From an uncultured bacterium (lineage in GTDB: Bacteria; Zixibacteria; MSB-5A5; CAIYYT01), in assembly GCA_963698225.1 (NCBI GenBank), contig CAVOPW010000004.1:386959-450958 (forward strand): a stretch of DNA of 64,000 bases, written 5' to 3'. The translations under genes were made by a program, and so were the position numbers. This document shows, in pieces, positions 2,905 through 60,668 of this stretch. Below the pieces are notes generated by a model, which saw nothing but the letters and a program-made list of their open reading frames with translations, did not search any database and had not been told where the DNA came from. Within the stretch, counting starts at the first letter, position 1; the number at the start of each line of letters is the position of its first letter.

Positions 2905-4705
2905 TCTTACCACAAAGTCAATTCGCGGTAAGATCGTCGCCGGAATCATGGCTGCCATCTTTCTGCTTCTGATTGGCAAGCTTGTTCAACTGCAGGTGGT
3001 CTCCTACGACTACTATTTCCAGATGTCGGAAGAGAATCGCATTCGACTTGTTCCCAGAACCGCGATGCGCGGGAAGATTGTCGACCGCGAAGGCCGGACT
3101 CTGGCCACCGACCGCCCGGCCTATACCGTGTCAGTGATTCCTTCGGAAATCCGGCAGTTGTCGCGCCTTTCCGAAGAGCTGGCGCCGTTGCTTAGCCTCG
3201 AGCGCAAAACAATCGAGCAAAAAGTCAAAGAGCGCCGTTCGCGCAAATATGAACCTGTGCCGATTCGAAGGGATATCGAGTTTGCCTCGGTCTGCATTAT
3301 CGAAGAGTCCAATGAGCTTTTCCCCGGAGTGATGTACCAGCTCGATCACGCGCGCACCTATCCCAACGGGAATATCGCCGCACACATCATCGGTTATACC
3401 GGCGAAGTCGATGAACGCGAGAGCAAAACCCAATATCGCATCGGATCGATGATCGGCCGCGCCGGTATCGAAAAACAATATGATCAGCCGATTCGCGGTA
3501 TCGATGGCGTCGACTACCAGGAAGTGTCCGCCACCGGCAGGATCCTTGGTTCCCTGGAGTCCAAACCGAATAAAGACCCCATTCCGGGGTCCGAACTTGG
3601 ACTGAGTCTCGATCTCGACTTGCAGGTCCTCTGCGATTCGCTCTTTGGCGATTCGCTCTCCGGTGCCGCGATCTTCATCAATCCCCAAAATGGCGAGATC
3701 CTCGCCATGGTTTCCAAGCCTAACTATGATGCCAATCTCTTCTCCGGATTCGTTCCCCGCGGAGCCTATCAGCAGCTTTCAACCGATGAACGCCGCCCGC
3801 TGCTTGACCGAGTGATTCGCGGAACTTATCCACCGGGCTCAACCTCCAAACTCTTGACGGCCGGCGCCGCTCTCGAGTTGGGTGTTATTGAACCCAATAC
3901 TCCTTTCAAACCTTGTTACGGCGGCTACCAGTTCGGCAACCGATATTTCAAGTGTCACAAGAAGTCCGGTCACGGCAGCCAGAATGTTTACGGTGCTCTT
4001 GAAGTGTCCTGCGACACCTATTTCTATCAGGTTGGATTGAAACTGGGACTCAAGAATTTTAGTGACTTTGCCAAGAAATGCGGATTTGATGTTCTGACTG
4101 GAATCGATATCCCCGCGGAGCGAGCCGGATTCGTCCCCACCGAAGAATGGTACAACAAAGCCTACGGCAAGAACGGCTGGACGAAAGCGGTACTGCTCAA
4201 CCTCGGTATCGGACAAGGGGAGCTGCTCGTCACTCCGCTCGGGCTCGCGCAGTTTTATTGCGGCATTGTCAATAACGGCAGCGTGATGAAACCCCATCTG
4301 ATGCGCTACATCAAATCCGCCAACGGGGAGTCGACACAGGCGGCCCCGGAGGTGACAAGGCAGCTTCCATTTTCTGCGTCTACACTGGCAATTCTGAAAG
4401 AAGGCTGCCGGCGTGTTGTGCAGGGCGGATCGGGCACAGCCGCCAGATCAAGAATCGAAGGAATCGAAATGGGCGGCAAGACGGGCACTGCTCAAAATCC
4501 GCACGGCAACGAACATGCCCTGTTCTGCGGATTTGCCCCGTTTGACAAACCGACAATCGTCGGTTGCGTGATTGTGGAAAACGCCGGACACGGCAGTGTA
4601 GCCGCCGCGCCCATCGTTCAACAGGTTTTCATTCGCTACTTCCAGAAGACCGGCTTGCTGGCGCCGCCGCCGCCGCCACCGCTGGAGGATATCGTGCAAC
4701 TATGA
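2897..4705 (+). CDS. mrdA: penicillin-binding protein 2 (elongasome transpeptidase)
   Basis: 602 aa with a TTG start overlapping the mreD stop. N-terminal TM segment, SxxK (STSK), SCD and KTGTA motifs. Ends in a Pro-rich tail. Confidence 0.9.
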   Translation: MIDLTTKSIRGKIVAGIMAAIFLLLIGKLVQLQVVSYDYYFQMSEENRIRLVPRTAMRGKIVDREGRTLATDRPAYTVSVIPSEIRQLSRLSEELAPLLSLERKTIEQKVKERRSRKYEPVPIRRDIEFASVCIIEESNELFPGVMYQLDHARTYPNGNIAAHIIGYTGEVDERESKTQYRIGSMIGRAGIEKQYDQPIRGIDGVDYQEVSATGRILGSLESKPNKDPIPGSELGLSLDLDLQVLCDSLFGDSLSGAAIFINPQNGEILAMVSKPNYDANLFSGFVPRGAYQQLSTDERRPLLDRVIRGTYPPGSTSKLLTAGAALELGVIEPNTPFKPCYGGYQFGNRYFKCHKKSGHGSQNVYGALEVSCDTYFYQVGLKLGLKNFSDFAKKCGFDVLTGIDIPAERAGFVPTEEWYNKAYGKNGWTKAVLLNLGIGQGELLVTPLGLAQFYCGIVNNGSVMKPHLMRYIKSANGESTQAAPEVTRQLPFSASTLAILKEGCRRVVQGGSGTAARSRIEGIEMGGKTGTAQNPHGNEHALFCGFAPFDKPTIVGCVIVENAGHGSVAAAPIVQQVFIRYFQKTGLLAPPPPPPLEDIVQL

Positions 4706-5938
4706 AGATCCTCACGAAAGACACTTTCAACTCCGGCAGCCTGACGATTTTCATCGCTGCCGCCTTGTTGACTATCATCTCGATCTTCTCTGGTGTACTC
4801 CGCCAATCATGATTCTCCCGATCCGCGACTGCGCGATGATTGGGCCAAGCAGATCGTTTGGTTTGTGATCGGCATGGGTATCTTCATTGCCATGTTGCGA
4901 ATTCCCATGCGCATTCACGAAATTTTCGCCTATGTCTACTATGCCGTCGGGTGTGCACTATTGCTGGGTCTCATTGCCTTCGGCGCATCCAAGTTTGGCG
5001 CTCAACGCTGGTACAGCCTGGGGTTCTTTTCCCTGCAGCCCTCGGAACTTGCCAAGGTGGCTCTCCTGTTCGCTCTTGCCCGCTACTTGAGCTACAGCCG
5101 CCGCCCCATTTCGAGCCTGCGCAAGATATTCACGGCCGCGGCCATGTGCGGATTCGTGACCTTCTTAGTTCTGCGTCAACCTGACCTTGGTTCCTCCATT
5201 ATCTTCACTGTGATCTTTTCGGCGATGATGTTCTGGGCGGGTCTTCCGGCTCGCTACTTACTGCTGTTCTATACACCCTTCATCAGCATGATAGCGTCGT
5301 CGAGCATGTATGCCTGGATCATCTTCTTTGTCCTCTTGATCGTGGCCGCGTTATTGATTGTCCGCAAGTCTCCGACTTTTACGATTCTGCTGGTAAGTCT
5401 GAATCTTTTTGTCGGTGCACTGAGTTCCATTGCCTGGAACCATCTGCACGACTACCAACAGATGCGTATCAAGATCTTCCTTGATCCCGGTCAGGACCCG
5501 CTCGGCGCCGGTTACCAGATTATTCAGTCTAAGGTCGCGATTGGATCGGGCGGATTGCTGGGCAAAGGGTATATGTCGGGAAGCCAAAACAAACTCGATT
5601 TCCTGCCATTGCGCCACACCGACTTCATCTTTTCCGTCGGTGCGGAAGAATTCGGCATGGTGGGCGCAATGATCGTCATCATATTGTTCGGTTTTCTATT
5701 TTTCCGCGGGCTACAAACCGCCTTGAAAGCCCGCAGCGAATTTATGGGCCTGGTAACGATCGGCGCCACTGCTGCATTGGCATTTCAGATGTTCGTCAAC
5801 ATCGGCATGGTGGTCGGACTCTTGCCGGTTGCCGGTGTGCCATTGCCATTTGTCAGCTATGGGGGTTCATCACTGCTTACCAGTTGGATTCTGCTTGGGA
5901 TCATCGCGAACGCCGAGCGCAATTGGCAAGAGTACTAG
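4702..5938 (+). CDS. rodA: SEDS-family peptidoglycan polymerase RodA, reading frame interrupted near 4786-4795
   Basis: ATG at 4702 overlaps the mrdA stop as ATGA and encodes TM1 (SLTIFIAAALLTIISIF), but that frame stops at 4810-4812. The rest of RodA (VYSANHDS... to the end) is ORF 4793..5938 in the +1 frame. The join matches the E. coli RodA pattern TM1 followed by WSASG. Confidence 0.85.
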
Positions 5939-5959
5939 ATTGAGAAACGAGGAATCATA

Positions 5960-17234: not shown

Positions 17235-19058
17235 ATGTCTCCCTCACTATCCTTGCTCAACCTTTTAAAGTGCCTCGCATCTCTGATTATCTTTCTAACA
17301 TCAGTGGCACAAGCCGGTGTCCCCAGTTCGTTCGCGTATCAAGGACGGCTGACCGAAGCTGACGGCACTCCGCTTAACGAAGTTGTCGCTCTCACCTTTA
17401 ACATCTATTCGGATTCGCTCGGCACAGCTTCAATCTGGAGTGAATCACACGCAACCGTTACGATCGCGAACGGGCTGTTCACTATTGTGCTTGGTAACAC
17501 AAATCCGTTGACCGTCGGGGTATTCAATGGCAGTATCCGCTGGCTGGGTATCAGTATCGATGCCGGAGCAGAACTGCGTCCCTTGCGCCCATTGCTAAGT
17601 GTGCCGGGGGCCTTTCAGGCAATCCAATCCGACACCGCACTGCATGCCAAAACAATCGCCGACAATTCGGTCACCACGAGTAAGATAGTTAATGGCACAA
17701 TCCAATTTGGAGATATCGGTCAAAACGCCGCCACCAACGGACAGGTCATAAAATGGAACGGCTCGAACTGGGCAGCTGCAGCCGATGCTGTCAGCAGTAA
17801 CACTTCCGGCTGGACTGACAATGGCACAGTGGTGAGCTTAACAAATCCGACTGATACTGTTGCACTCAATACAAGTTCACGACTGGGCAAACTGAATATC
17901 AATGGTGACCTCGGACTAACAGGGGAATCTGGAATTTTCTTCGGTTCCGCCAACGCACGGTTGGAGGCGACGGCCGGTAACAACATGAAGTGGGTCGGCA
18001 CCGATTTGAGCCTCTTGGCCACCGAAAGCGTTTACTTTACGGAGAACGGCGTTGCGACTTGGGCGGAGTTTGACAACGTCAACCGGAGAGTCGGCATCGG
18101 TACGGTAAACCCCGATGACCGGCTGCACATTGAGAACAGCGATGCCGGTACCTGCTGGCTGAAGATTCAGGGCTCGCATGCGACACAGTGGGGACAGACG
18201 GGGTTGCGGATTCAGACACCGGCCAATACCTGGCATTTGCGCCAGGACCTTTACACTCACGTCAACTTCCCGGCAGGCGCATTATCACTGTACAACAGCG
18301 GCGGCGCTATCGAAACGATGACCTGGCTGGAAAATGGCAATGTCGGAATCGGCAGGACTAATCCGACGCGGAAACTCCATGTGAATGGCAGCATCCAGGT
18401 GGATGATACGCTCTATGGCGGGGCGATAAATCCCGCTTTGATGTCGGCCGCCAGACTGCCGGATGAAGCAGGAATTGCTTCGGCGAAAGCACATTGACCC
18501 CGGGGGCATCGCTGTCTCTGACGCATGACTTTCAGTCATTCTTTCACGCCAAATCACGGTTCCGGCGGCCTGGTTATGTGTTGGCATTGGGACATTCGTG
18601 GATAACGTATGATCACACTTACAATGACTATGATGCGGTCGCACTTCAATCTCCGACATTACCACTAATGCCGACTACGAAAGACTCGCATTCTTTGGCA
18701 CGTCAGGCAACGTTGGTACAGGGCGCTATTCCTGTACGCTCACTCCGCATGGAGTATTTCGTGTTACCGAAGCCGGGAGCTATACATATTACTTGCTGGG
18801 GAAAAAATACGATGCGGTCAGTGCTCAAGTGCTTAATGCCGACTTGACGCTTGTGTATGTTCCGACCGCGTATGGAACGGTGGAAACAACTCCCGTTTAT
18901 TATCCGACGCCGCCGCTCAAAGGGATTTTCGGCCAGCCATCAACTGTTGGTCCGAAGTCCCGATGCAACCGGCTTCAGCAGGCGTGAGCGAAGAGCTTCG
19001 ACTGCTGCGGTCGGAGATCGAGCTGTTGAAGAAACGTATCGACGAAACGAAGCAATGA
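17235..19058 (+). pseudogene. secreted tail-fibre-like / adhesin-like protein with C-terminal coiled coil, at least 3 frame disruptions in the last 600 nt
   Basis: GGAGGA RBS and ATG 17235, then a signal peptide and the N-domain FAYQGRLTEADGTPLN...TF.IY...NGLF.IVLG. Frame 0 stops at 18497. Homologous sequence continues in frame 2 (18467-18640: SLSLTHDFQS...GYVLALG...YDAVALQ), then frame 1 (18634-18987: ISDITTNADYERLAFFG...LTLVYVPTAYG), and returns to frame 0 (..SEELRLLRSEIELLKKRIDETKQ, stop at 19058). Paralogous to 37312-38560. Confidence 0.5.
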
Positions 19059-19936: not shown

Positions 19937-20422
19937 TTAGTGACCCTTATGTTCTTCCTTCATCGGTTCAGCCTTCTTGTCTGCGGCGGCATCCATCTTC
20001 TTCAAAAACTTCTGAGGGTCAGCTTTGAACGACTTCTCGCATTTACTGCAACAGAAGTAAATTCTCCGGCCTTCGAAGTCGGTAAATACTGCTGAATCCT
20101 CCAACGCCTCACCCGAAACGGGGCACTTGCTCTGGATGTTTTCGAAAAGCACGCCGTCGGCTGCAGCTTTCTTGAAGTATGTATCAGGATCAGCTTTGAG
20201 CTTCTTTGAACACATCGGGCAGCAGTAATAGACGCGTTGGCCTTGAATATCAGTATATGCTGTCGAGTCGATCGGCTTGCCCATGACGGGACAAAGTGTT
20301 TGCGGTTTCAACTCCTTCGAAGTCTTTGTGGCTGGCGTCTTGTCCTCGGCGTGAAGTGACGCAGCGGATGCAACGATAAATGCGGCAACCAGGGTCGTCG
20401 CGATTCTTCTCATCATGGTCAT
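19937..20422 (-). CDS. secreted protein with two YHS (TRASH-like) metal-binding domains
   Basis: 161 aa with a signal peptide. Two copies of CPV.G....(R.YYCC..C..K...DP..F). Divergent from the cusCBA-like operon. Confidence 0.7.
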   Translation of the reverse strand: MTMMRRIATTLVAAFIVASAASLHAEDKTPATKTSKELKPQTLCPVMGKPIDSTAYTDIQGQRVYYCCPMCSKKLKADPDTYFKKAAADGVLFENIQSKCPVSGEALEDSAVFTDFEGRRIYFCCSKCEKSFKADPQKFLKKMDAAADKKAEPMKEEHKGH

Positions 20423-20587
20423 CTGATTCTCCTAAATAGATGTTATTTTTTGCTCGAACTTCGAGTTTTCGTTCATCAGGCATACCATCAAATACCGTGC
20501 CGCGATCTCCCTAATGTGTAAGTTATTCAATGACAATATCTTTTGCCGCCATCAATGGAAGCATCGTCTGACTTGGCGACCTATGAT

Positions 20588-20603
20588 TGGAGAATATTCT
20601 CCA
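20588..20603. promoter_or_regulatory. perfect 16-bp palindrome TGGAGAATATTCTCCA in the divergent YHS / cusC intergenic region (candidate operator)
   Basis: Read directly from the sequence. Lies 166 nt upstream of the YHS start and 205 nt upstream of the cusC-like ATG 20809. Confidence 0.35.
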
Positions 20604-20808
20604 GCACTGAAGACTATTCTCCGTTCTTCTACAGCCGGCACCGCGGAACGGCCAAGTTTGCAATTGGTGAAACTGGCAGTAATCGATTCATCCACAGCAT
20701 CTTCCGAGAGTTCGGATTGATAGTCTTGCCAATATCCCGTTCTTGGCACGGTTTTCTCTACTACAGATCCAGGTGAATACTAAAGAGCGAATGGAAACAG
20801 GTAGGAAA

Positions 20809-22257
20809 ATGAAACCGGTTTCCCTCATCGCGGCCACGGCAGCCGCGACTATGACAATCATAAATCATAAGCTTGTGTTACCGGGAGGATATAGCGTGCG
20901 AAGTTGGGCAGTAACAATTCTAGCCGCAATGATATCAGCAATGGTCATGCCTGGCCTGTCGACACTCCACGCTCAGGGAACCGCCGGGGACTTATCAAGC
21001 GTTGGAACTACCGCTGCAAGGGTACTAAGTTTAAATCAGATCGTTGAGGAAGTTGTGAAAAACAACGATCGCGTCGCGGCCGCGCGCTTCATGGCCGATG
21101 CCGCTGAACGCAAGATCGGTCCGGCCGGGGCGTGGAAAGACCCTATGCTCATGCTCGGTATTCAAAGTGTGCCGACCAATTTTGATTTCCAGATGGACGA
21201 CATGACAATGAAGATGATCGGACTGAGCCAGGAGATTCCCTATGCCGGCTTCAAGGGCTATGCAAAGAAAGCCGCGCGGGCTGATGCCGCAGTTGCTCGG
21301 GCTGAAGCACACTCGATCACTATCGATCTTGTAACCGTTGCGAAGTCAGCCTACATCGATCTCTACTATCGGCGGCTCAACCTTGCCGAATTAGTTCGAC
21401 AGAGTCATCTGCTCGAGCAAGTAGTTTCTGCGAGTACGGCAAGACTGAGAACGAGTGAGGCCGGACAGGAGGAGGTCCTGGCCGCGCAAGCCGATCTCTG
21501 GCGCACTGAATCGATGATTTTGTCCGCGGAGCAAGAAGTTATCGAGGCTACTCAAAATCTGAATAGCCTGAGGGGAGCTGACGCCGTCGACACGGCATTC
21601 CAGATGACTCCGCCTGACCCTCCCTTTGTGCCCGATTCACCTGCCCAATGGCTGGCAGGCGCTGAAGAGAATTACCCTGATTTCCAAAAACTACGGCACC
21701 AGTCAGAGAGCTACAGCTTATCCGCAGCCGCGATGAAAAGAATGCAGTGGCCGATGCTTGATGTCAGCGGCAGCTACGGAATTCGTTCGGGATACAAAAT
21801 GGGCGGCGACGGCATGCCGGAAAAGCGCGACAATATGGTCAGCTTTGGCGTTACCCTGTCGCTGCCGTTATTCGAGGGACATCAACAAGGACAAGCTGCC
21901 CGCTCAATGGTTGCGATGAAAATGGCCTCACTTGGAGAGGCTCGACAGCTCCAGCGCGACGTCAACGCCAAGCTCGTTACACTTCATGAACGCGCCAAAC
22001 GTCTCAGCCTGAGCCTGGCGCTTTATCGTGACCGAATCCTGCCGACCACCGAGGACGCCTATCGCACTGCCTTGAGTGGCTACGCCAGCAACCGCACCGA
22101 TTTCATTGCGCTGTTGACGTATGCAACTGCCGTCTATCGTGACCGAGTTACGGTCAATGAACTGGCGAACGCTCTTGCTCAAACTCTGATTGAAGCAGAA
22201 CGATATACAACAAACACCGGCGAGCTTCCAATGAAGTCGTCTTCACCAACAAAGTAA
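20809..22257 (+). CDS. TolC-family outer-membrane efflux protein (CusC-like)
   Basis: ORF 20743..22257. Start chosen at MKPVSLIAATAAA (ATG 20809), after AGGTAGGAAA. Two-repeat TolC/OEP architecture. First gene of the efflux operon. Confidence 0.75.
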   Translation: MKPVSLIAATAAATMTIINHKLVLPGGYSVRSWAVTILAAMISAMVMPGLSTLHAQGTAGDLSSVGTTAARVLSLNQIVEEVVKNNDRVAAARFMADAAERKIGPAGAWKDPMLMLGIQSVPTNFDFQMDDMTMKMIGLSQEIPYAGFKGYAKKAARADAAVARAEAHSITIDLVTVAKSAYIDLYYRRLNLAELVRQSHLLEQVVSASTARLRTSEAGQEEVLAAQADLWRTESMILSAEQEVIEATQNLNSLRGADAVDTAFQMTPPDPPFVPDSPAQWLAGAEENYPDFQKLRHQSESYSLSAAAMKRMQWPMLDVSGSYGIRSGYKMGGDGMPEKRDNMVSFGVTLSLPLFEGHQQGQAARSMVAMKMASLGEARQLQRDVNAKLVTLHERAKRLSLSLALYRDRILPTTEDAYRTALSGYASNRTDFIALLTYATAVYRDRVTVNELANALAQTLIEAERYTTNTGELPMKSSSPTK

Positions 22258-22281
22258 CAAAGAAGACTGGGGATATAATTC

Positions 22282-23958
22282 ATGACTGATCAATCAGAAC
22301 GCTATGAACCCAACGAGCACGAGCCGTTGCCCGAAGGGGAAGAAGCGCCGCCTCCATTCGTCCGCACAATGGCGATCGTTCGCTGGATACTGCTCGGCGG
22401 GATGACGATCTTCGCCTTCATAATGGTGCTGCACTATTTTGAACTGACTCCGTGGGCAAATGCCGATACGGGTTCCAAGCAATACCACTGCCCGATGCAT
22501 CCGACTTATGTAAGCAGCCAGCCGGGCGAATGTCCGATATGCGGGATGAACCTGGTGGTAATCGACGCCAGCGGCCACGAGACGGCGGCAAGTGCTGACA
22601 CAACTCAAATGACTATGGACCAAGCCGGTCATTCGACCGCCGCAAAACCGGGGCAGTATACTTGTCCTATGGATCCGGAGGTCATATCGGATACTCCCGG
22701 AAGGTGTCCCACATGTGGGATGTATCTGGAACAACTTCCTCCTGCCGCGGCGGGAAAATACACTTGCCCGATGGACCCGGAAATTGTCCAAGATGGTCCC
22801 GGCGAATGCTCAATGTGTGGTATGGACCTCGTTCCGATGACAATGGCAACTGACGCACCGGTTGAACAAGCTGATCACGGAGTCGGCGGTGCCGGTGGAC
22901 TCGGTTCAGCGCCGGTGCCCGGACTCGTGCCCGTGACCATTGAACCGCAACGACTGCAACTGATCGGGATCCGGACCGAGAAAGTCGCGACGCGGCAAAT
23001 TGACGACGAGCTGCGGCTGGTCGGCTATATAACTCCCGATGAATCCAGGGTGTCCAATGTGCACGTCCGCATTAGCGGATGGGTGCAGCAGTTGTTTGTT
23101 AATGAGACAGGACAGGCGGTCCGAAAAGGCCAGCCGTTGATGTCCATCTATAGTCAAGAAGTATACGAAGCGGAACAGAATCTCATCCAGGCGGCAGCGA
23201 GATCGACACAGCCATCAAATGACTCGTTGTTGACGGCAACACGCCTTGAGCTCTTGAATGCAGCGCGGGAGCGACTCGAACTGCTGGGAGTTCCGGCTGA
23301 AGAAATCGCCGAAACGTTGAAACGAGGCGTAGCAGTACCCAGTCTTTCACTCAGAAGCCCGTTCGCCGGAGTGGTCTTGGAGAAGACCGCGTACCAAGGC
23401 GGCTTTGTTGCGCCCGATCAGAATCTGTTTACCATTGCCGACCTCTCGACTGTCTGGATTCTCGCAGATGTTTATGAACAAGACTTGAGTAAGGTAAAGG
23501 TCGGTGCTGATGCAGCAGTCAGCGTGGACGCATTCCCCGGTAGATCCTTTACCGGGACTATTCAGTTTATTTATCCCACTGTGTCGGGGAAAACACGCAC
23601 TGGAAAGGTGAGAATAGTACTGCGCAACCCCGATCTTGAATTGCATCCGGGAATGTACGGGTCAGTTCGGGTGACTAATCTGCAAGGTGCAACGCTGGCG
23701 ATATCCAGTGAGGCATTGATGGATGGCGGCGACTTGAAATACGCCTTTGTCGTACATGAGGGTAAGCACTTCGAACCACGGTTGCTTACAGTCGGCCGGC
23801 GCACTGACAATTGGGTGGAAGTCCTTTCGGGCCTGCGCGAGGGCGAAATGGTCGTTACCAGCGCCAATTTTCTTATCGACTCCGAGAGTCGCCTCAAGGC
23901 CGCAATTGCCGGAATGGGAAGCACAAGTGCTGACGCGCACGCCGGGCACGGAAAATAG
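22282..23958 (+). CDS. RND efflux periplasmic adaptor (CusB-like) with three N-terminal CxxC heavy-metal-binding modules
   Basis: 558 aa. Three modules: YHCPMHP..PGECPICGMNL, YTCPMDP..PGRCPTCGMYL and YTCPMDP..PGECSMCGMDL. These are followed by an HlyD/MFP barrel-sandwich body. Confidence 0.8.
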   Translation: MTDQSERYEPNEHEPLPEGEEAPPPFVRTMAIVRWILLGGMTIFAFIMVLHYFELTPWANADTGSKQYHCPMHPTYVSSQPGECPICGMNLVVIDASGHETAASADTTQMTMDQAGHSTAAKPGQYTCPMDPEVISDTPGRCPTCGMYLEQLPPAAAGKYTCPMDPEIVQDGPGECSMCGMDLVPMTMATDAPVEQADHGVGGAGGLGSAPVPGLVPVTIEPQRLQLIGIRTEKVATRQIDDELRLVGYITPDESRVSNVHVRISGWVQQLFVNETGQAVRKGQPLMSIYSQEVYEAEQNLIQAAARSTQPSNDSLLTATRLELLNAARERLELLGVPAEEIAETLKRGVAVPSLSLRSPFAGVVLEKTAYQGGFVAPDQNLFTIADLSTVWILADVYEQDLSKVKVGADAAVSVDAFPGRSFTGTIQFIYPTVSGKTRTGKVRIVLRNPDLELHPGMYGSVRVTNLQGATLAISSEALMDGGDLKYAFVVHEGKHFEPRLLTVGRRTDNWVEVLSGLREGEMVVTSANFLIDSESRLKAAIAGMGSTSADAHAGHGK

Positions 23959-23970
23959 GAATACAAGATT

Positions 23971-26900
23971 ATGATATCAGCCATCATCGACTACTGTGCG
24001 CGGAACAAAACCGTTGTCTTCATTGCCACTGTCTTTGCATTGTTGGGCGCCTGGTACTCAATCAAGAATATCCCTCTCGACGCTATTCCCGACCTCTCCG
24101 ACACGCAGGTAATTCTCTGGTCGGAATGGATGGGACGCAGCCCTGATCTTGTCGAAGACCAGGTCACCTACCCGATTGTCACGGCGCTCTTGGCCGCTCC
24201 GCATGTTACGGCCGTGCGCGGTTTTTCGATGTTCGGGATGTCATTTGTCTACGTCATCTTTGAGGACGGGACCGACATCTACTGGGCGCGCAGTCGCGTC
24301 ATGGAATACATGAAGCAATTCGAAGGCAAACTGCCGCCCGGAGTGTCTCCGGTTATCGGCCCTGACGCCACGTCCGTAGGATGGGTTTTCCAATACGCGC
24401 TGATTGATTCCTCGGGCAAACATGATCTCGCTGAAATGCGCACTTTTCAGGATTTCAATCTGCGTTACGCCCTCGCCGCAGTTCCGGGAGTCGCCGAAGT
24501 AGCGTCGATTGGCGGTTATCAGAAACAATACCAGGTCGAGATTGAGCCCGAGCGGCTGAAAGCTTATGGTCTTTCGATCTCGGATGTTGCCCGCGCGATT
24601 CGCGCCAGTAACAATGATGTCGGTGGGCGAGCGATCGAATTAACCGGCAGAGAGTACTACGTCCGCGGCCGGGGCTACATCAAGGATCTCGATGCTCTCC
24701 GCGATATCAGTCTCGGCAACAGCGCGACCGGTACTCCGATTCTGCTCGGCAATATTTCGCGTATTAGCTTCGGTCCCGACATCCGCCGTGGCGTCGGCGA
24801 TTTCGACGGCATCGGGGAAGCGGTCGGCGGTGTCGTGGTCATGCGCTTCGGTGAAAATGCACTCGACGTTATCGAACGAATCAAGGCGAAATTGGACGAA
24901 CTCAAGGCAACGTTCCCTCCGGGGATTGAGGTCAAGATCGTTTATGATCGCAGCAACCTGATTGACCGGGCTATCGGTACGCTGAAAAGGAGCCTGCTTG
25001 AAGAGGGAATTGTCGTAGCGCTTGTCATCATCATTTTCCTGCTCCACTTCGGCAGTTCGCTGGTCCCCATCCTCGTGATGCCGATAGCCGTCGCGCTCGC
25101 GTTCATTCCTATGCACATTCTCGGAATCAACTCCAATATTATGAGCCTCGGCGGAATCGCCATTGCGATCGGCGCCATGGTCGATTCGACAATTGTGCTT
25201 GTGGAAAACGCTCACAAACGGCTGGAAATGGCCTCGGGAACCGCGAGCAAGAAGGAAATAATCATCGCGGCCTGCAAGGAAGTCGGACCGTCGATATTTT
25301 TCGCGCAGTTGATTATCACAATTGGCTTCTTGCCCATCTTCGCGTTGACGGGGCAAGGCGGGAAACTCTTCGCACCATTGGCCTTCACCAAAACTTTCGC
25401 GATGTTTTTCTCGGCCATTGCCGCCATTACCATCGCGCCGGCCTTGATGATGATATTCTTGCGCGGCAAGATTCATCGGGAATCAAAGCACCCGGTCTCA
25501 AAACTCCTGATCGCAATTTACAAGCCGTTTGTGTTCGTCGCCCTGAGAAATCCCAAGACGACCATTGCCATCGGTATAATGGCGATCCTCTCTGCCCTTC
25601 CCATGCTCCCGAAAATTGGCTCGGAATTCATGCCTCCCCTCAACGAGGGGGACATCCTCTATATGCCGACGACATTTCCCAACATCTCCATCGAAGAGGC
25701 GAAGCAGAGCATGCAATTTCAGGATCGTGTGATCCGTTCATTCCCGGAGGTCGTGTCTGTCTACGGCAAAGCGGGTCGAGCAGAGACTCCGACCGACCCG
25801 GCTCCTTTGAGCATGCTGGAAACGATCATACAGCTGAAACCCCGTGAGGAGTGGCGCAAAGTTCGCGCAAGAACGCTGGTATTCAAGTTGGGCTCCGGAA
25901 TTCGCCAAGAAGGCTCTGCGGCCGATTTGGCCGGAGGAGCGCACGATTGACTGGCAAGAGTTAATCGCCGAGTTTGATAAGGCCATGCAGATGCCGGGCT
26001 GGACCAATGCTTGGACGATGCCGATCAAGACCCGCATCGATATGCTCTCAACGGGCATTCGCACTCCCATCGGAGTCAAGATCTTCGGAAATGATCTTGA
26101 CGAGATCGAACGCATCGGTCAAGACTTGGAGAGGTCGCTGTCAAAGATAGATGGAACGCGCTCCGTTTATTCTGATCGTAACACCGGCGGATTCTTCATC
26201 GACATCGTTCCTGACCGTGCTGAGATCGCTCGATACGGTCTCACGATGCAGGAGGTCCAAGACGTTATCGAGGCTGCGATCGGCGGCATGCCGCTTACAG
26301 TCACTGTCGAGGGACGCAACCGTTTCTCAATCAACCTTCGTTATCCGCGAGACCTGAGACAAGACGTCGAACGTCTGAAGAGTATCGAGATTCCGCTTCC
26401 CGCCGCATCGGACGCTCCGGCTTCCGGAGGAGGAATGGGGATGAGCACTGTGGACGACGCCGATGAGCCGCCAATGTTGGCCAGTTTAGATCCTTTCATG
26501 GATTATCAGGCATTGGGGAAGTCAATTGAGCTTGCACAGATGGACAATATGGGGGGATCGGGTGGCAGTGGTAAAGGGGCCTTCCCCGGCAGTGCAAGCA
26601 GTTCTATGTCCGGGGGACAAACGGGAATGAACTCAAGTCCAAGAATGCCAACGTCACAATCCGGTGCTGGAACGCCGTTTCCGTCGGGTCGTCCACATAT
26701 ACCATTGGGGCAAATTGCGGAAGTCAAGATCGTGGGCGGACCGCCGATGATTCGCGATGAAAACGGCATGCTGGTAGGCTATGTCTACATCGATATGGAT
26801 CAGAACAAGCGAGACATCGGCGGCTATGTCAACGAGGCCAAAGAAGTCGTGAAAAAGGAACTCAACATACCAGCCGGGTACTATCTCAAATGGACCGGGC

Positions 26901-27472
26901 AGTACGAGTTGCTCGAAGTTATGGCCAAGCGGATGAAGATCGTAATCCCGGTCACACTGATCTTGGTCATTCTCCTGCTTTACATGAATTTCCGCAATAT
27001 CACGGAGACGCTGATTGTGCTCGCTTCGGTGCCATTTGCCCTCGTCGGTAGTATCTGGCTCATGTACTTCCTCGGTTACAATTACTCGACCGCTACGCTC
27101 GTCGGTATTATTGCTCTGGTGGGGCTGGCAACTCAGACGGGCATTGTGATGGTCTTGTACCTTGATCATGCTTACGAAAAGCGTAAGAAAGCCGGCATGA
27201 TCCGTGACCTCAATGATATCATCTGGGCGCACATGGAAGGAACTGTCTTGCGAGTGCGACCCAAGTTAATGACAGTAACAACGACGGTGATCGGCTTGGT
27301 TCCGCTCCTCTGGGCGACCGGCACGGGTGCGGATGTGATGAAGCGAATTGCAGCTCCCATGGTCGGCGGCTTGATCAGCTCGACGTTTCTGACCTTGGAA
27401 ATAATTCCCGTGGTTTACACCTATTGGCGACTTTGGCAGATCAAGCACGAGAAAACCGACGGACCTCCTTAG
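23971..27472 (+). CDS. CusA/CzcA-family heavy-metal RND transporter, frame disruption near 25855-25875
   Basis: ORF 23971..25950 (..ETIIQLKPREEWRKV) continues as ERWYSSWAPEF...MPGWTNAWTMPIKTRIDMLSTGIRTPIGVKIFG in ORF 25844..27472. The joined length is about 1165 aa. Confidence 0.9.
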
Positions 27473-27758
27473 ATCCGAAACGGTTTTCAGGAGCGCACCG
27501 CCAAACACCGAGGCATCACTCCAGCTTTCGGGCGTTCCTCTTAGCCGACATGCACTTATAGATCGACGAGACCTCGTCCGGGTGCCAACAGTCTATTCTG
27601 GGGGCAAGAGAGCACAAATGCCGATTCCCCTTGACTAACGTCGATATTTCTATAGATTTACAGAGGCTTCCAGTAATCTGAACACGCCAATACTGTCCAA
27701 TCTGATATGGACAAGTTCGGCCGTTGATTGATATGGATCTGACAGGGAGAGAGGCCTC

Positions 27759-29014
27759 TTGAGAATCGCTATTGTCATGTTGTTCATCCCGGCGCTGTCA
27801 CTTCAGGTGAGTGCAGCGACCATCCGCATCCCTTTAGATCAGCCGACGATACAGGCGGGGATCAACGCGGCGTTCAATAATGACACCGTTCTGGTCGTAG
27901 CCGGTACCTATCTGGGGGACGGCAACCGCGACCTCGACTACGGAGGTAAACTCATTGTCGTCAAGTCCGAGAGTGGCCCGGAACTGACGATTATCGACTG
28001 CCAGGCCGACTCGTCAGCCAAGCACAATGCGTTTTATTTCCAGAAGCGGCGAGGATTCCACCGCCGTGCTTGACGGCTTCACTATTATGCACGCTTTTTC
28101 AGACAAACTTGGTGCAGTGAATTGTGAACTGTCGGCACCGACTATCCGCAATTGCATCATTACCGAAAACCTGCGCAGCGGAATCTATCTCTATAACGGG
28201 TTCGGCATGGTGCTGCAAAACTGCATCATCTCCAAGAACGCCATCGATGGTGTGGAGTTCAGCTATTGTCGTGTCTGGGTGACAGAGTGCACAGTTGACA
28301 GTAACCAGATGGGAGGTATCATCGCCTACAACAACACTGCCCTCAACCTCACCAATAGTCAGATGATTGGCAACGGCTCCATCGGCCTCGTTCACGTAGC
28401 ATTTACCACCAAGGCGTATATCGCCAATTGCACCTTCGTCCGGAATCGAGTCGGTTTTTTTCTCGACGGTGATTTCCCGAAAAACCAGACGTCTGATCTC
28501 GCTCAGCCTCGAAAGAACGACCGTAACGAATTCGATTTTCGCTTTTAACACCGAATACGGATTCGAGGTCGGGTAGTTTGCCTGCGGCTTTAACGCCTAC
28601 TGCAACGACTGGTATGGCAATTCCAATGGCAACTTCCACACGCAAAGTACTGGCTGTCCTTTCGATACCAGCAGCAATATTTCCGCTAATCCGCTTTTCT
28701 GCGGAACGACGGGCAACGAATACAGTATTGCCGCGCAATCGCCCTGTGCACCGGCCGGTAACTCCTGCGAAGCCCTGATGGGAAGATACCAGCCCGCCTG
28801 CACGGTTGTTCCGATTCATGGCGATGCCAATGGCGATGGCTCGGTGAATATTTCCGACGCGGTATATCTGATCAGTTACATCTTCTCGGGAGGGCCGGCA
28901 CCGAATCCACTTCTATCTGGCGATGCCGACTGCAGTGGAGCTATCAGCATATCGGATGCGGTGTATTTGATCAATTACATCTTTGCCGGAGGACCGCCGC
29001 CGTGCGAAGGGTAG
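27759..29014 (+). pseudogene. secreted right-handed beta-helix repeat protein with C-terminal dockerin-like module; 2 frameshifts and 1 in-frame TAG
   Basis: TTG start and signal peptide. Frame changes near 28045-28060 (AFYFQ to SGEDSTAVLDGFTI) and near 28480-28500 (..DGDFP.. to LISLSLERTTVTNSIFAFN). In-frame TAG at 28574-28576. Tail: [59 protein letters not shown]. Confidence 0.6.
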
Positions 29015-29161
29015 GTGGCGTTTAACAGTTGAATTCCGAAATGGTTTGACGGAATAAGCTAACCGACTTGGCTACTCATAACCGGTTAGACGTTCCAAGG
29101 ATTGAGCAGTTGGCAAAACGAACTTATGGGCATGATGAATGGAATCATAGATCGGAGGCGG

Positions 29162-29839
29162 ATGTTGAGATGGATGGTAGTCCTTCTCATGGCACTGGGT
29201 TTTACCGGTGACGTGTCGGCACAGCAAAAGAGTATCTCCTGGAAAGCCCAACAAATCAACGAGTCAAAGTTCTTTCTGATGACTGACTTCGGATTTGATT
29301 TCCCCCTCCAGGGCAATGATACTCCCGGGTATGTTAGTAATTCGAATTTTGATCTGGTCTGGTCGCTGGGGATCATGCGCAATATCACTAGGGGTGTGGC
29401 TATCGGATTGGCCATTGAGGGTACGACCGAAAAGATCGACTTTCCCATCGCGCTAAAGGGCCGCATTAAGACGTGGCTCAATCGAGACATCTGTCTCGAT
29501 ATCGGCTTCGGTCGCACCATCACGGCATTTGACAATGAGGACATAGGAAGGCGCACGCCAGTTTTTTTTGGAATTCCCCCGTCGCGATTGGACGGTTCCG
29601 GGACCACTGTTGATATGGCGGTCTCACTCAACAATTGGGCCGGGCTCTATCTTCGTCATGTTTCACTTCCGTATTGGACTATTGAGTACGATTACAATTC
29701 CACCGAACCGATCGGAAGAACGCACAAGATCAAGAACCTTCACGGCGGAGTCCGTTTTCAACATCGACTGGGTCTGGCGACGGGCTTGATCGTGCCAATC
29801 AGCTATCTGGTCCACGCCTTAGTCGAAGCGCGGAAGTAA
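29162..29839 (+). CDS. hypothetical secreted / outer-membrane protein
   Basis: ORF 29102..29839. Signal peptide MLRWMVVLLMALGFTGDVSAQQ, then alternating beta-strand-like sequence. No family recognised. Confidence 0.35.
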   Translation: MLRWMVVLLMALGFTGDVSAQQKSISWKAQQINESKFFLMTDFGFDFPLQGNDTPGYVSNSNFDLVWSLGIMRNITRGVAIGLAIEGTTEKIDFPIALKGRIKTWLNRDICLDIGFGRTITAFDNEDIGRRTPVFFGIPPSRLDGSGTTVDMAVSLNNWAGLYLRHVSLPYWTIEYDYNSTEPIGRTHKIKNLHGGVRFQHRLGLATGLIVPISYLVHALVEARK

Positions 29840-36868: not shown

Positions 36869-37288
36869 CTACGGAGACTGGAAAATGTACTTAATCAGCC
36901 AGACCGCGTCAGAAATGTTAGTTATCCCGTTGCCGTCAGCATCTCCCCCACAGGCAGTGATCGGCTCGGGGCCGCCCAGGAAGATGAAATTGATAATATA
37001 AACGGCATCAGAAATGTTGGCGTTGCCGCTCCCATCAGCATCACCGGAACGACAGACTGTGAACTCCTGCCAGAATCCCTGGTTGACTCGATAGTTGGGA
37101 GAAACCACGCCGCCAATTGCCGTCTGCACGACGGTACCCTTAATATTCTTCCCGTCGGCAAAATTGCTGTTGGTTCCACCGGTAGCCACAACCTGCCACT
37201 TGATATGGTACGTGTCTGCCGCCAGAGCGGAACACAACACCATCATGAAGCATATGGCTGCGCGAACAATCATTCGGACCTTCGTCAT
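36869..37288 (-). CDS. small secreted protein with dockerin-like C-terminal module
   Basis: 139 aa with a signal peptide. Y.IKWQVVATGG...SPNYRVNQGFWQ motif, then GDADGSGNANISDAVYIINFIFLGGPEP..GDADGNGITNISDAVWLIKYIF. Confidence 0.65.
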   Translation of the reverse strand: MTKVRMIVRAAICFMMVLCSALAADTYHIKWQVVATGGTNSNFADGKNIKGTVVQTAIGGVVSPNYRVNQGFWQEFTVCRSGDADGSGNANISDAVYIINFIFLGGPEPITACGGDADGNGITNISDAVWLIKYIFQSP

Positions 37289-41534: not shown

Positions 41535-42597
41535 CTATTCGCAGATTTGCGACCACTGGCCGCGGAAGTAACCGTGGGTGGCGCCGCGACCATTGCCATT
41601 ACCTGGATGCTCTCTGGCTATCCAATTGGCGTCGAACTGGCCTACTGTAACTACTTCACGATTGTAGATTTCTCCGGCAAACCAACCCTTGTCGGTCACA
41701 TCTGGCTCGGCATCGGTGCCGTAACCCCATTCACCCTTGAGGAAGCCGCGGAACACGCCGGCCAGCGAAATCCACTTGCCGAAAAGAACTTGGGTCCCAT
41801 CGTCGCGATTGCCAAAGTGACCCCGAACATGTCCCAGCATCAGGCCGTCTTCCGAAATCCAGCGTCCTACGAACGTGCCGTGTCCGTTCTCCGAGGCCGG
41901 GCGCACCCACTTACCTTCCAGAAATCCTTCGCCACACGCGAGTTGCTCAACCTTAAATCCATTGATTGAGAATTGATTGCTGCCGACATCAATCAGTTCG
42001 CTGATCGAAGCTAACTCGGACATGCTGAAAGTCCGGGTGAAGGGACCGGACGCAAATGTGAGGGTGTTTTCGGTCGGCGATTCAGTCGGTTTCGGATCGT
42101 ATACGTAGACAAGCATTCCATCAAAACTGGGGCGGGTCTTGCTTTCGAACTCCAGAACTGTCCTTGAAACGCGCGGACGGACGATGAAGTCGCCGGCTTC
42201 GAAGCGAATCAAGCGCACAGCTATGATGGCACCGCGTTCGACGCGTCAACGAGCCGGACCAATCGGTAGTCACCGCTTCAGTCGAATCTGTTTCCAAGTG
42301 TCCCCAAAGGAACTCGACCGAGTACACATCGACATCCGGCAGATGCATGAGCGAATCAACATCTGAATGATGCCCCATCGGATCGTCGGCTTCGTCGCTG
42401 CCTTCAAGTCCGGCAATATCGGGATCTCCAAAAGCCGGTTGCTCGTTAGTAGCTTTGTAACCGCCGAAGTTGTCCGTTAGGTTGATGATTTCATCTTCAC
42501 CGGCATTAGACGCAACCTTGTCGTCGCTGCAGCTTGTGAGCCCGACAACCAACAAACCAAACATGCCCCAAAACAGAAACCTAAGTTGTGCTTTCAT
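41535..42597 (-). CDS. hypothetical lipoprotein with G-x-W/F repeat C-terminal domain, frame disruption near 42240
   Basis: ATG 42597 gives MKAQLRFLFWGMFGLLVVGLTSC (lipobox). ..TDWSGSLT continues as (R)VERGAIIAVRLIRFEAGDF.. in ORF 41535..42218. The C-terminal part repeats G.F.G.W and G.L.G...G.F motifs. Confidence 0.5.
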
Positions 42598-46204: not shown

Positions 46205-46634
46205 CTACTTTGTTGTATCTTGCGGCAACGCCTGATTCGTAAGCGAATCGACCTGACCGGTCGTCTTCGGCACTCCGCCCATCATCTGCAACATCGGTCT
46301 TGCCTGTCCTAACAACCTTAGATTACTGGAGTTCTTGGCTTCACTTAACAACGCCGTCGCCTCGGCTGCGAATTTGCCCGTTGGCGCCGCCTTGAGATAG
46401 GCTTCCAGATTCCGCTATGATCTTGACATCCCATTCTTCATTAAGAATCTTGCGCATCATATCGATTCGCTCCTGACCCTTCTCGAGTGAAAAGGCCTTA
46501 TTCAGGTCATCCCACATTTGTTTGGCATCAGTGAAGAGCTTCTGGGTCTCCGGCGCTTCCGAAGCACACGATACCAATGCACCGGCCATTGCGACAACAA
46601 CAAGAATCACTAGAGCTTTGTATAGCTTATTCAC
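46205..46634 (-). CDS. hypothetical lipoprotein, frame disruption near 46395-46410
   Basis: MNKLYKALVILVVVAMAGALVSC (lipobox). ..DVKIIAE continues as (L)EAYLKAAPTGKFAAEATALLSEAKN... in another frame, down to a TAG at 46205. Confidence 0.45.
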
Positions 46635-51319: not shown

Positions 51320-54184
51320 ATGAAAAAGATCTCTTCGATGTTGTCTGCATCGATCGTGATGCTGGTTGCTTTGCTCTTATTAGTTCAGCCAATCGAATCT
51401 GCGCCACCAAGAACACCGATTAAGGGTCCTCAGACAGCGCTCATTTTGGACCAGGACACCCGCCTCGACTGCAATACTCTCGAAATGTTTGTTTACAACG
51501 ACGGTAACTTTGCCTACGACCACGCGAATGTCTTGGGAAAGACCGACGGACTCTATTATCCACGGGGAACAACTAAGACCGTCATATACTCCGCTGGAAT
51601 CTGGGTCGGAGCAAAGGTCAGCGGTGACACTCGCCTTGCCATCGCCGAGTACAACTCTGAGTTTGGCTACGGGCCGATGGTAAATGGCAGTCCCCTGCCT
51701 GACGATTCTCGCTTTCGGGTCTACAAAGTACGCCACACTGACAATGATGCCACCAATCCGGACTACGCCAACTGGCCGGTAGATCAGGGAGCTCCAGTTG
51801 ATGAAAACGGCGATCCACTGATCCTCGGCGACCAAATGACTTGGTCGGTTTTCAATGATGCCGACCCTCCATTACATGACAATAATGCCGGCTCGACTGC
51901 GCCGCTTGGTATCGAGATTCAACACTCGACGTTTGGTTACACTCGCAGTGGCCCGCTTGGAAATGTCTATTTTCTCAAATTCAAGATCATTAACAAAGGC
52001 GGCAACAACCTCCAGGATGCCTATGTGTCTATCTGGGCAGATCCCGACCTTGGCGATCCAAGTGACGATCTTGTCGGGTGCGATACGATTCTCGGGCTTG
52101 GTTATTGCTACAATGAAGGTGAGGATGCAACGTATGGTGCGAATCCGCCCGCCGTCGGTTTTGACTTCTTGCAGGGGCCGATTGTTCCCGGACTTCCAAC
52201 TGACACTGCATTTGTCTCGGGCGAAGCCCGGCCCGGTTTTCGCAATCTGAAGATGGTTTCGTTCAACAAGTATATCAATGGCACTGATCCAACTGTCAGT
52301 TGGGAGACTTACGGTTATATGCGCGGGCTTGTCAAGGACCCATACACCGGTCAGATGGTGCCCATGATCAACCCAACCAACAGTCAAGTGACCAACTACG
52401 CGGTTTCCGGTAATCCAGTTATCCAAACTGGGTGGATTGATGAAGCCGCATCAGATCGACGGCTTATGCTCTCTTCCGGGCCGTTTAATATGGCGCCGGG
52501 TGATACGCAGGAGGTCGTGGCCGCAGTTCTTGTCGGTCAAGGAAGTGGCCCTATCAACTCAATCACCGTCCTGCAGCAAACTGATTCCCAGGTTCAAGCG
52601 GCTTACAACGGGAATTTCGACATTCCGGATCCGAATAAGGCAATTGAAGTTAATGCCCGTGGTCGCGACCAGGCAATCGACGTCTTTTGGACCAGCGAAA
52701 TGATCGGGGATATTATCTACTATCCCATACTTGGCGAGGCCTACGAATTTGAAGGTTTCAATGTTCTTCAGGGACAGACGCCCAATGGCCCGTGGAAGAA
52801 ACTGGCTACCTACGATATCAGCAATGAAGTTGCATTGATTTATGGGGACGTGCTAAATCCCGAAATTGGCGCCGTCGAGCGCATTGTCGTACAAAATGGC
52901 AGCAATTCGGGGCTGCAGTTTCACCAATTCATGACCACTGACGCGTTCACGCATCAACCTCTGCAAAACGGCGAGACATATTACTTCGGCGTTTCGGGTT
53001 ATTACTACGACGTGAACCACATGGTCGAATTCAGGGATCAATACGGAAACTTCCTCGGTTATCTCGCGCCAACGCTGGAGTCACGAGTTTTCGCAGTCGA
53101 TGCTACTCCTATTTCTGATCCCGGAATTCTCTCCGACACCGCATTACATAGTGCCGGCCAGAGTGACGGTCAGGTAATCATCGAATGGATCGATCCAGAA
53201 GCGCGTACCGGTCATGATTATCGTGTGAATTTCAATTCCGACCTGTCTTGGAACCTGCAAGACGTTACCCTCGGTACCGTCCTGTTGAATCACCAGGTGA
53301 ACCAGTCAGGCGATTTCAACTATCCCATTGTCGATGGATTTATGACCCGCGTCTTCGGTCAACAACTGGGGGTCAAGAAAATTGAAGAGGTCGTTAACGC
53401 TTACGGTCCCGTCTTCCCTCCCGACAATGTTCACATGTCAAGGAATTCGACTTCCGAATGGCATATGGATCCGCTCGGGGACCACTCATTGACGAGATAC
53501 AGATGGACCTGCCCGTCGGCCGATGACTACGAAATCCGCATCGTCGGCGGAGCGACGGAAAGTTGCTTTGACTGGTTCGGCCCCCAGGGTAACATGGATT
53601 ATGGTTTCGTGAATGCATTCAAAGTTCCCGTTGAACTGTGGAACATCGGTTCGGGAACACCGGAAGGTACTTTCGACGACTTTCGAGTTGCCTTCATGCT
53701 CCTTGACGATGGGCAAGAGTTTGGAGAATTTGACTGGGGTGATGGAATCTACATTCACGAAATTCCTTATGACAACGTGAATTGGGCTGACCCAAACGAT
53801 AACTCCGGAAACTACGACCCGGACTTGCTCCTTTGGACTTACCGTCGCTTTCGTTTCTTCCCACAAGATCCGGACAACACAATCGGCAGTAATATCCTGC
53901 GGAAGGAACCATAGTCCGGATTACAACGAATAAGCCCAACACGATTGCCGACATTATTTGCGTTCTCCAGCCGATTTGAGTGCGGCGACATCAATCAGTC
54001 AGGGGAAGTGGATATCACCGACGCTATCGCGCTCATCAACTACCTCTTTGCCATCACTCTCGACTCCGTCGACCCGACCGACGCCGACGTCAACTGCGAC
54101 GGCCGCATCCGTATCACCGATTGCGTTTATCTTATCAATTACATCTTCCTCGGCGGACCGGAACCATGTGCTGCATGCCCCTGA
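51320..54184 (+). CDS. large secreted protein of unknown function with dockerin-like C-terminus; compensating frameshift pair near 53885-53955
   Basis: GGGAGG RBS and ATG 51320, with signal peptide MKKISSMLSASIVMLVALLLLVQP. The ORF runs to 53914. Frame 1 reads YPAEGTIVRITTNKPNTIADI (53893-53950), then the original frame resumes as LFAFSSRFECGDINQSGEVDITDAIALINYLF...DCVYLINYIFLGGPEPCAACP. Confidence 0.6.
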
Positions 54185-56902: not shown

Positions 56903-56933
56903 CGGCCTATTTACGGTGCAAAACGGAGTAATG

Positions 56934-58279: not shown

Positions 58280-58580
58280 ATGCGTCCGACTTTCTCGCTC
58301 GCGGTTCTCCCGCTTGTCGGACTCGGTTGTTCGGCCGGCGTTGACGACAAGAACCACCTTGGCAACACTTGCGGTAGAGTGCAGCTTGGGAGACTTCGAA
58401 TTCACCATTCCTCAGGTTGCAGCTACTTTGGGTAAGCAGACCCTTGAGACAGTCACTAGCGGAACATTTGCTCCTACGGGAGCGACACCAACTTCTGCAT
58501 TTACGGAGGGCTACTCATTACAAACGATACTCTGGTCGCTTCTGGCACAACCATCTGCGACATTGGCCCTTTTCGGATAG
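58280..58580 (+). CDS. small hypothetical lipoprotein, probable frame disruption within 58340-58430
   Basis: GAGGAA RBS and ATG 58280 give MRPTFSLAVLPLVGLGCSAG. That frame stops near 58433, and ORF 58314..58580 carries the remaining 88 codons. Confidence 0.3.
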
Positions 58581-58738
58581 ATAGCGCGCGCTAACCGATA
58601 TCGCTCTCCCGCCCGAATCCTGCGTTCCACGCTTGGCACATCTCGTGCGTCTCAACTTTTGAGCTTTACTAATTCAGATTTGAGACTATATTATCTATGC
58701 TTGTTTGTATTTTATCTCTTACGTTGGAGTTACCTGCC

Positions 58739-60668
58739 ATGAGAACCTCGTTAAAACTAGTCACCTTTTTTATCCTTCTTCTTTGTTGCTCGGGATTTGC
58801 CGATGAACTTGTCAAAGTGACCATCGACAGCCGAAGTGACGCCGAACTGCTCAAGAGCATTGATCCCGATGCGGTTGTCAAGACCAACAATGGATACTTA
58901 TTGATCGCAAATCCGGCCGATCTTGCCGCTCTTACGGCCTCTGGGCTGAAATCTGAAATCGTTGTCTCCGGCATCGAACGCAACGAATTGGCGCTTGACC
59001 TGCGCCTCGACGACTACAATATGACTCGTTATCCTGTTGTTTTCTCTGAAGGCAATCTTCGCGTCTACCGTATATCCGGCGGCTTCGATCCTGCGCAAGA
59101 AGTCCAGCCAACTCTAATGGCATTACCGCAACAGTCGCTGCGAGTTGTTTTTGACGAGTTCGAGGTGACGCCATTCGGCGGCCTGACGGAATCGGCGACT
59201 TTAGAAAAACTCCTGGGCACGATCCAGCAAGACTCGTTGTATGCATACACTGCCAAACTTCAGTCTTACTACCGCCGTGTTGCCGGCTCACCCAGCATCT
59301 TCCTGGCACGCGACTGGATCAAGACGAAATTCGAGTCTTTCGGTTATGATTCTGTCTATCTGGACAGTTGGAGTCAATACTTCAATGGCAAGACTAATCA
59401 GTGCTACAACGTTGTCGCTGTTAAGACCGGCACGCTGTATCCCGAAGATTGAGATCATCGTCGGCGCACACTATGATGGCGTAGGTAACTCGCCAGCCGC
59501 AAACGATAATGGCTCGGGCACGGCCGGAGTCCTGGAGATCGCCCGTGCTCTTGCGGATACTCCCACTGATGTGACCATCAAGTTCATCACGTTCGATGCC
59601 GAAGAGTGGGGTCTTTATGGTTCTTATCACTACGCCAACGCCGCGGCCGCAAGAGGGGACCAGATCCTCTTCATGTTCAACATGGATATGATCGCAAACA
59701 TCACTAACACCAATCGCGCAACAGTCTATAGCGGCTCCAATACAACTTACGCCAGCATGTGGAACACCATCGCCCAGGCCAGCTACGGCATCACCGGCTA
59801 CCTTAGCGGCAACTCCAGTGGTTCGGATCACTACCCGTTCACGCAAAACGGGTACCCGGCAGTCTTCATCATCGAATACAATTTCTCCAGTGTCTATCAC
59901 TCGGCGCGCGATAGCACGACGTATATGAACTTTGAGTATATGACTCGTATGGTGCGGGCATCACTGGCAACTGTGGTTCAAGGGGCCAACTCCGGCGATT
60001 TTGATAATGACGGCGTCCTGAACAGCGTCGACAATTGCATCTACACGGCCAATCCCTCGCAAGCTGATCCGGATATCGACTCAATCGGCAGTGCCTGTGA
60101 CAACTGTCCCAGTGTTTATAACCCATTGCAGGAAGATGAAAACGGTGACGGTGTCGGCGACTACTGTGACGGCAATCTGCACATTATGAGCTACATTCTG
60201 CCGCCAGCTTACCGCTTGAAACCATACTTCTGTCAGATGCAGGCAATTGGTGGAGCCGCCCCCTACAGTTGGGCGTTTTTCGGCGGTGATCTCCCCTTCG
60301 GCTTGACCTTCAACAGTCCGCAAGGCACAATTACGGGAATACCGACTTTTAACGCAGAATACTATTTCACCGTAACGGCAACTGATGCCGGCAACCCGGC
60401 CAAAGCCGACACGATCAGCTTGAGCCTGACGGTTACTGATGCACCGCCGCCGCCCTATCTCTGCGGAGATGCCGATAACAGCGAATCTGTCAACATCTCC
60501 GATGTTGTCAATATCATCAATTACATTTTTGCCGGTGGCCCGGCGCCCGATCCGCTCGCATCTGCCGATGTTGATTGCAGCACCAACGTGACCATTTCTG
60601 ATGTGGTGTACTTGATCAATCACATTTTTGCCGGCGGACCGGTACCTTGTGCCGGCTGCCTGCCTTAG
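58739..60668 (+). CDS. secreted M28-family metallopeptidase with thrombospondin-type-3-like repeats and dockerin-like C-terminus, frame disruption near 59440-59450
   Basis: ATG 58739 with a signal peptide. ..[14 protein letters not shown] continues as [11 protein letters not shown]...[15 protein letters not shown]...[11 protein letters not shown] (M28 zinc ligands) in ORF 59241..60668. Also [12 protein letters not shown]...[14 protein letters not shown]...[12 protein letters not shown]. Tail: [58 protein letters not shown]. Confidence 0.8.

Follow-up and report, generated by a model that had tools for sequence, protein, structure and literature searches.

Frame breaks across a draft Zixibacteria genome are very probably consensus errors of the assembly

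The 64,000-nucleotide stretch of Zixibacteria DNA analysed here, called the window in the following (C4:386959-450958 of assembly G000, the genome under study), contains at least 27 frame changes in 17 genes, as measured against orthologs and homologs with open frames. Comparative evidence from related genomes, together with the internal evidence of the assembly, makes it very probable that these breaks are consensus errors of a draft metagenome assembly and not mutations in living cells. G000 is a draft metagenome-assembled genome of 3.55 Mb in 24 contigs (the largest of 838 kb), with an estimated completeness of 89%, against 96–100% in all but one of 12 genomes of the same genus. The relatives of its SecA, at about 60% identity, carry the name Candidatus Zixiibacteriota, from which the assignment to Zixibacteria follows.

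The reference for most sites was G011, a relative of the same genus that shares synteny with the window over most of its length (81–86% DNA identity); 60 intact G011 proteins were compared with the window by tblastn, followed by pairwise DNA alignment around each junction. A second relative, G004, is too divergent (74–82% DNA identity) and partly non-syntenic, and was used solely for the lengths of open reading frames (ORFs) and for a small lipoprotein. The segment at 20–32.6 kb of the window has no syntenic counterpart in either relative, and close orthologs of its RND pump and its beta-helix gene are lacking from the genus; the sites in these two genes rest on distant homologs (34–57% identity) and on Pfam. 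Gene names were checked by NCBIfam and Pfam where possible. Pfam gave no match for the "tail-fibre-like" genes, two lipoproteins, and a 159-aa gene; "tail-fibre-like" is an unconfirmed label taken over from the original prediction, which had been made from the sequence of the window alone. The frame changes, with insertions and deletions of bases (indels) in window coordinates, are as follows:

rodA, plus strand: insertion of T at 4789, with residue 29 of the 411-aa ortholog matched in frame 1 and residue 30 in frame 2; identified by NCBIfam TIGR02210.
Short-chain dehydrogenase (SDR; Pfam adh_short), minus strand: insertion at 8433; G011 alignment.
159-aa DinB-like gene, minus strand: insertion at 14664; G011 alignment.
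619-aa "tail-fibre-like" gene without a Pfam family, plus strand: insertions at 18494, 18510, and 18567, deletions at 18535 and 18647, and a complex event of net -1 at 18957-18968; G011 alignment.
DinB-family gene, minus strand: insertion of G at 19582; positions 27–160 of the Pfam DinB profile lie in the downstream fragment.
RND efflux pump, cusA-like (ACR_tran), plus strand: +1 event from frame 1 to frame 2 at 25860-25868; homologs of 1042 and 1111 aa.
Beta-helix/dockerin secreted protein, plus strand, 28042-28576: +1 events at about 28044 and about 28470, and a TAG at 28574-28576; 450-aa homolog.
Ser/Thr kinase with TPR repeats (Pkinase/TPR), minus strand: insertion at 34734; 865-aa ortholog.
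410-aa paralog of no known family, minus strand: insertion at 37874; G011 alignment.
clpB, N-terminal part, minus strand: insertions at 41277 and 41010, deletion at 41186; identified as ClpB by TIGR03346.
353-aa gene, minus strand: insertion at 42243; G011 alignment.
142-aa gene, minus strand: insertion at 46408, with a placement that is ambiguous within 46408-46411; G011 alignment.
Class I/II aminotransferase, minus strand: deletion at 49647; G011 alignment and Pfam.
950-aa secreted dockerin protein, plus strand: compensating pair that puts about 53885-53955 in another frame, with a TAG of the main frame at 53912-53914 in between.
lepA, minus strand: insertion at 55959; the extra base is missing from seven relatives of the same genus.
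108-aa small lipoprotein, plus strand: +1 event at about 58390 and -1 event at about 58525; 108-aa orthologs.
M28 peptidase with a dockerin C-terminus, plus strand: insertion at 59447; G011 alignment and Pfam.

Nearly all events in the window are single-base indels that do not lie in homopolymers; leaving compensated events aside, there are about 15 insertions and 4 deletions. The two parts of the RND pump carry positions 7–628 and 787–1018 of the Pfam ACR_tran profile on separate fragments, and the beta-helix/dockerin gene passes through frames 3, 1, and 2 in succession when aligned with its 450-aa homolog. The broken genes are full-length ORFs in both G011 and G004, and no change of frame occurs in the alignments of secA and some 27 further orthologs from G011. 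The comparison thus agrees closely with the original prediction, which had counted about 25 disruptions in about 17 genes, most of them +1 events, had considered the other genes, including secA, to be intact, and had proposed the comparison with sister genomes, where the orthologs stand in plain open frames. Nearly all of the predicted sites coincide exactly or within about 10 nt, and two are off by 20–95 nt; for the small lipoprotein, predicted to be shifted at 58340-58430, the first shift lies inside this range but the second outside.

Two further features of the window concern the kind of events. The frame around the TAG at 28574-28576 is open on either side, and this is the sole stop in the window without a nearby shift as an explanation. 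A substitution error is one possible cause, the others being a closely spaced compensating pair and a true nonsense mutation. Downstream of the 353-aa gene (41538-42597, minus strand), an intergenic palindrome carries a single inserted base at its centre (position 41511), GGCGTTCT[C]AAGAACGC, which indicates that the same kind of indel occurs also outside genes.

The breaks are not confined to the window. In a genome-wide sample, consisting of the ORFs from another 400 kb of G011 that map to contigs C10, C19, C21, and C22 of G000, one or more frame changes occur in 54 of 273 orthologs (20%). The 332 kb of aligned coding sequence contain 134 isolated 1-bp indels, about 1 per 2.5 kb, which is also the rate in the window; 104 of them are insertions and 30 are deletions (3.5 : 1). 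All four bases are evenly represented among the insertions, and 77 of the 104 (74%) have no identical base alongside. On contig C20, at least five frame pieces make up rpoB and at least four make up rpoC, and a single shift interrupts fusA, each of these genes being present in a single copy in G000. Shifts occur also in the single-copy tyrS, in recJ (two shifts), in pta and methylmalonyl-CoA mutase, and in atpD, which shares 99% protein identity with its ortholog in G011. As written, rpoB, rpoC, fusA, tyrS, atpD, and recJ are unusable, and no viable cell could carry them. In the window, rodA and lepA likewise belong to the indispensable genes that are hit.

These data bear directly on the possibility of real gene decay, in which the organism or its dominant population would gather frameshifts, either as a mutator or as a host-restricted lineage under relaxed selection. 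Such decay would be in line with the fact that the indels are truly present in the deposited sequence, with the accessory, secreted nature of several of the affected proteins, and with the presence of an in-frame TAG besides the indels in one gene. It is nevertheless highly improbable, given that rpoB, rpoC, fusA, and the single-copy tyrS are broken and that the broken genes retain 93–99% protein identity to their orthologs on either side of the break. Almost all events are 1 bp in size, and nonsense substitutions are few, with only a handful of in-frame stops of the substitution type outside the window. Bacterial pseudogenes reportedly show a deletional, repeat-driven bias, as described by Mira, Ochman and Moran in 2001; the excess of insertions over deletions and the avoidance of homopolymers in G000 are the opposite of this pattern.

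A further argument against decay comes from a locus that is present twice. A 6.4-kb locus occurs at the ends of both C10 (C10:105526-111942) and C21 (C21:204592-211015) with 96% identity, and each copy has frameshifts in genes that are open in the other; the breaks are therefore not reproducible between the two copies of one and the same locus. In the case of lepA, the extra base is private to G000 among the eight genomes compared. The two copies of tuf, which are 100% identical in G011, differ in G000 by three 1-bp indels and 25 mismatches. In these copies (C20:144892-146103 and C20:160566-161782), the mismatches are mostly spaced like third codon positions, and the patch comprising tuf2 and rpoBC may be of a different strain origin than the rest of the contig.

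Apart from the 6.4-kb locus, the contig ends of G000 overlap each other in several other places, with identities that range from 90 to 96%:

C8:1-7500 with C15:135231-142733.
C8:38950-43783 with C19:1-4844.
C15:1-2413 with C16:1-2412.

Overlaps at this level of identity indicate that related strains were co-assembled. The overlapping ends are unresolved strain bubbles; the bin thus combines related strains, and parts of its sequence are present twice.

The insertions themselves bear a signature of such a composite. In 58 of 81 isolated insertions (72%), the added base could replace one of its neighbours without changing the encoded amino acid, making it a silent alternative, whereas the same is true for only 39.5% of 11,315 random insertions that were simulated and processed with the same aligner (Fisher p = 7e-9). 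The difference persists when same-base cases are excluded (77% vs 51% silent alternatives in the simulation; p = 5e-5), and insertions that are identical to their neighbour are depleted (25% observed vs 39% simulated). The pattern of silent alternatives holds for 10 of 14 insertions in the window, as exemplified by the T/C in a Leu codon of rodA, by the T[C]TG of lepA, where the relatives have either TTG or CTG, and by the GAA/GAG of the M28 peptidase.

This signature suggests that many of the insertions are strain polymorphisms of which both alleles were kept in the consensus, which is the somewhat favoured origin of the extra bases provided that the breaks are errors. At these sites, the co-assembled strains would differ by a polymorphism of a single base that is mostly silent; in the alignment of noisy long reads, the difference would show up as one inserted and one deleted base, and the consensus step would then keep both alleles side by side, adding one base. 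The remaining breaks would represent ordinary residual read errors in regions of low local coverage.

The main competitor of this scenario is pure random read noise, caused by thin coverage or missing polishing, in which the mixture of strains would play no role. Such an origin is a possibility to be reckoned with, although a rather doubtful one. The insertion-rich profile, the even composition of the inserted bases, and the patchy density of the events all fit a consensus of noisy reads at low coverage, and the pairs of silent alleles show no excess of transitions. Random noise does not, however, account for the high frequency of silent alternatives, which exceeds the random expectation with and without the same-base cases, nor for the depletion of insertions identical to their neighbour; moreover, the 90–96% identity of the contig-end overlaps documents the presence of related strains in the data.

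The distribution of the shifts across the genome is uneven. Most 5-kb bins contain 0–2 shifts but some contain 13–27 (dispersion index, 8.8), and the density of shifts is unrelated to the substitution divergence (r = 0.02). No motif was found at 103 shift sites, with a maximum of 0.11 bit at any position within 8 nt. Slippery sites and miscalls at methylation motifs were rejected on the grounds of these motif-free surroundings, and homopolymer slippage was rejected because most insertions are not located beside an identical base.

Programmed recoding, in which ribosomal frameshifting or transcriptional slippage would restore the reading frames in the cell, deserves next to no credence. It is favoured by nothing except the predominance of +1 events, whereas the 103 sites share neither a motif nor a slippery run, the sites are not conserved but correspond to plain open frames in the relatives, and one gene in five is affected. 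It is likewise extremely improbable that the indels are real variants of a natural Zixibacteria population in which one gene in five, including those of RNA polymerase, tolerates an added base; such a population would require a novel kind of correction at the level of RNA or the ribosome.

Several observations weigh against an explanation of all breaks as consensus errors. Their status as errors was deduced from comparative and internal evidence and not seen directly, and the relatives used for comparison are other species (81–86% DNA identity). Where genes evolve fast, as do the tail-fibre-like, beta-helix, and 950-aa genes, a small share of the events could be genuine. The TAG at 28574 and the handful of in-frame stops elsewhere are not explained by indel errors alone. 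A stretch of 23 kb with ribosomal-protein operons (C20:123-146 kb) shows no change of frame although it lies beside the riddled rpoBC stretch, and such clean stretches would require an uneven quality of the consensus. Finally, the lack of a transition excess among the silent-allele pairs, relative to the null, makes the signature weaker than that expected of natural polymorphisms.

A mixture of both processes, with errors accounting for most breaks and a few real pseudogenes among the fast-evolving secreted genes, is unlikely. The best candidate is the beta-helix/dockerin gene with its TAG, the others being the tail-fibre-like gene with at least six events and the gene of the 950-aa protein; in these genes, events and stop codons are clustered, and they either lack close orthologs or are merely 69–88% identical to them. 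However, equally dense clusters occur in rpoB, rpoC, and other patches, which means that clustering alone is no sign of decay, and the stop at 53912-53914 of the 950-aa protein is accounted for by the pair of shifts that flanks it.

Taken together, consensus error is the reading toward which the original prediction had leaned, and the genome-wide load and the breaks in rpoB, rpoC, fusA, tyrS, and atpD speak in its favour. A mixed-strain assembly, its second option, gains support from insertions that look like strain polymorphisms written twice, whereas real pseudogenisation, which it had left open, is not supported; the two assembled copies of one locus are broken differently.

Pseudogenes derived from assembly are documented (PMC11017572, PMC12007338), and a drop in completeness has been reported for uncorrected long-read genomes (PMC8103633), which is matched by the 89% of G000. 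The similarities with the indel errors of long-read genomes and metagenomes (PMC12007338, PMC8103633, PMC11017572) extend to the genome-wide occurrence of single-base indels, the increased number of split genes, the dependence on local consensus quality, and the otherwise conserved nature of the affected genes. A difference lies in the insertions of G000, which dominate by 3.5 : 1 and avoid homopolymers. Nanopore assemblies suffer mostly from homopolymer deletions, and the insertion-rich, non-homopolymer profile of G000 may be closer to that of PacBio continuous long reads.

A parallel to the proposed retention of both alleles is provided by collapsed assemblies, where nearby allelic variants cause indel errors (PMC8445201). 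In Trypanosoma brucei, variants of co-assembled haplotypes caused reads to be misaligned, and the resulting false indels cut ORFs short (PMC8445201). The counterpart in G000 is the combination of inserted bases that represent silent alternatives with strain-level overlaps of contig ends, the link here being statistical. The two cases differ in that T. brucei, a diploid eukaryote, has two defined haplotypes, whereas G000 would be a mixture of bacterial strains. Many genes interrupted by frameshifts are found also in Mycobacterium leprae and in recent host-restricted symbionts. Genomes of this type spare the essential machinery and are characterized by nonsense mutations, larger deletions, and drift, with a predominance of deletions; none of these traits applies to G000.

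The window contains additional features that are independent of the origin of the breaks. The segment at 20000-32600 comprises the RND efflux operon and the beta-helix/dockerin gene; the pump is most closely related (57% identity) to that in a genome of another family, and the segment looks like an accessory, possibly acquired island. A C-terminal module of about 60 aa is common to at least four secreted proteins, located at the following positions:

28820-29008, plus strand: beta-helix protein.
53990-54178, plus strand: 950-aa protein.
60456-60659, plus strand: M28 peptidase.
36881-37228, minus strand: minus-strand gene.

The module matches Pfam Dockerin_1 with E = 1e-9 to 1e-11 (beta-helix gene and ortholog of the 950-aa protein) and is present on further proteins in G011. 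It may represent a shared anchoring or sorting domain in this genus of Zixibacteria. A second lepA-like copy is located on a long contig of G004 (G004:C23:872655-873669), where it is distributed over several frames with stops and shows 64–89% identity; an intact lepA is also present in that genome. Given this split copy, the assembly of G004 may include a noisy or foreign contig.

The affected genes are almost certainly intact in the organism, and the breaks would have no biological significance. About one gene in five of G000 is prone to be miscalled as split or as a pseudogene, and the protein sets and completeness estimates of this genome, as well as any findings of "pseudogenes" or "novel short ORFs", including those from other windows, should be discounted accordingly. 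If the reads confirm it, the tendency of the inserted base to be a silent alternative to its neighbour suggests that indels caused by strain collapse may be recognized from sequence alone.

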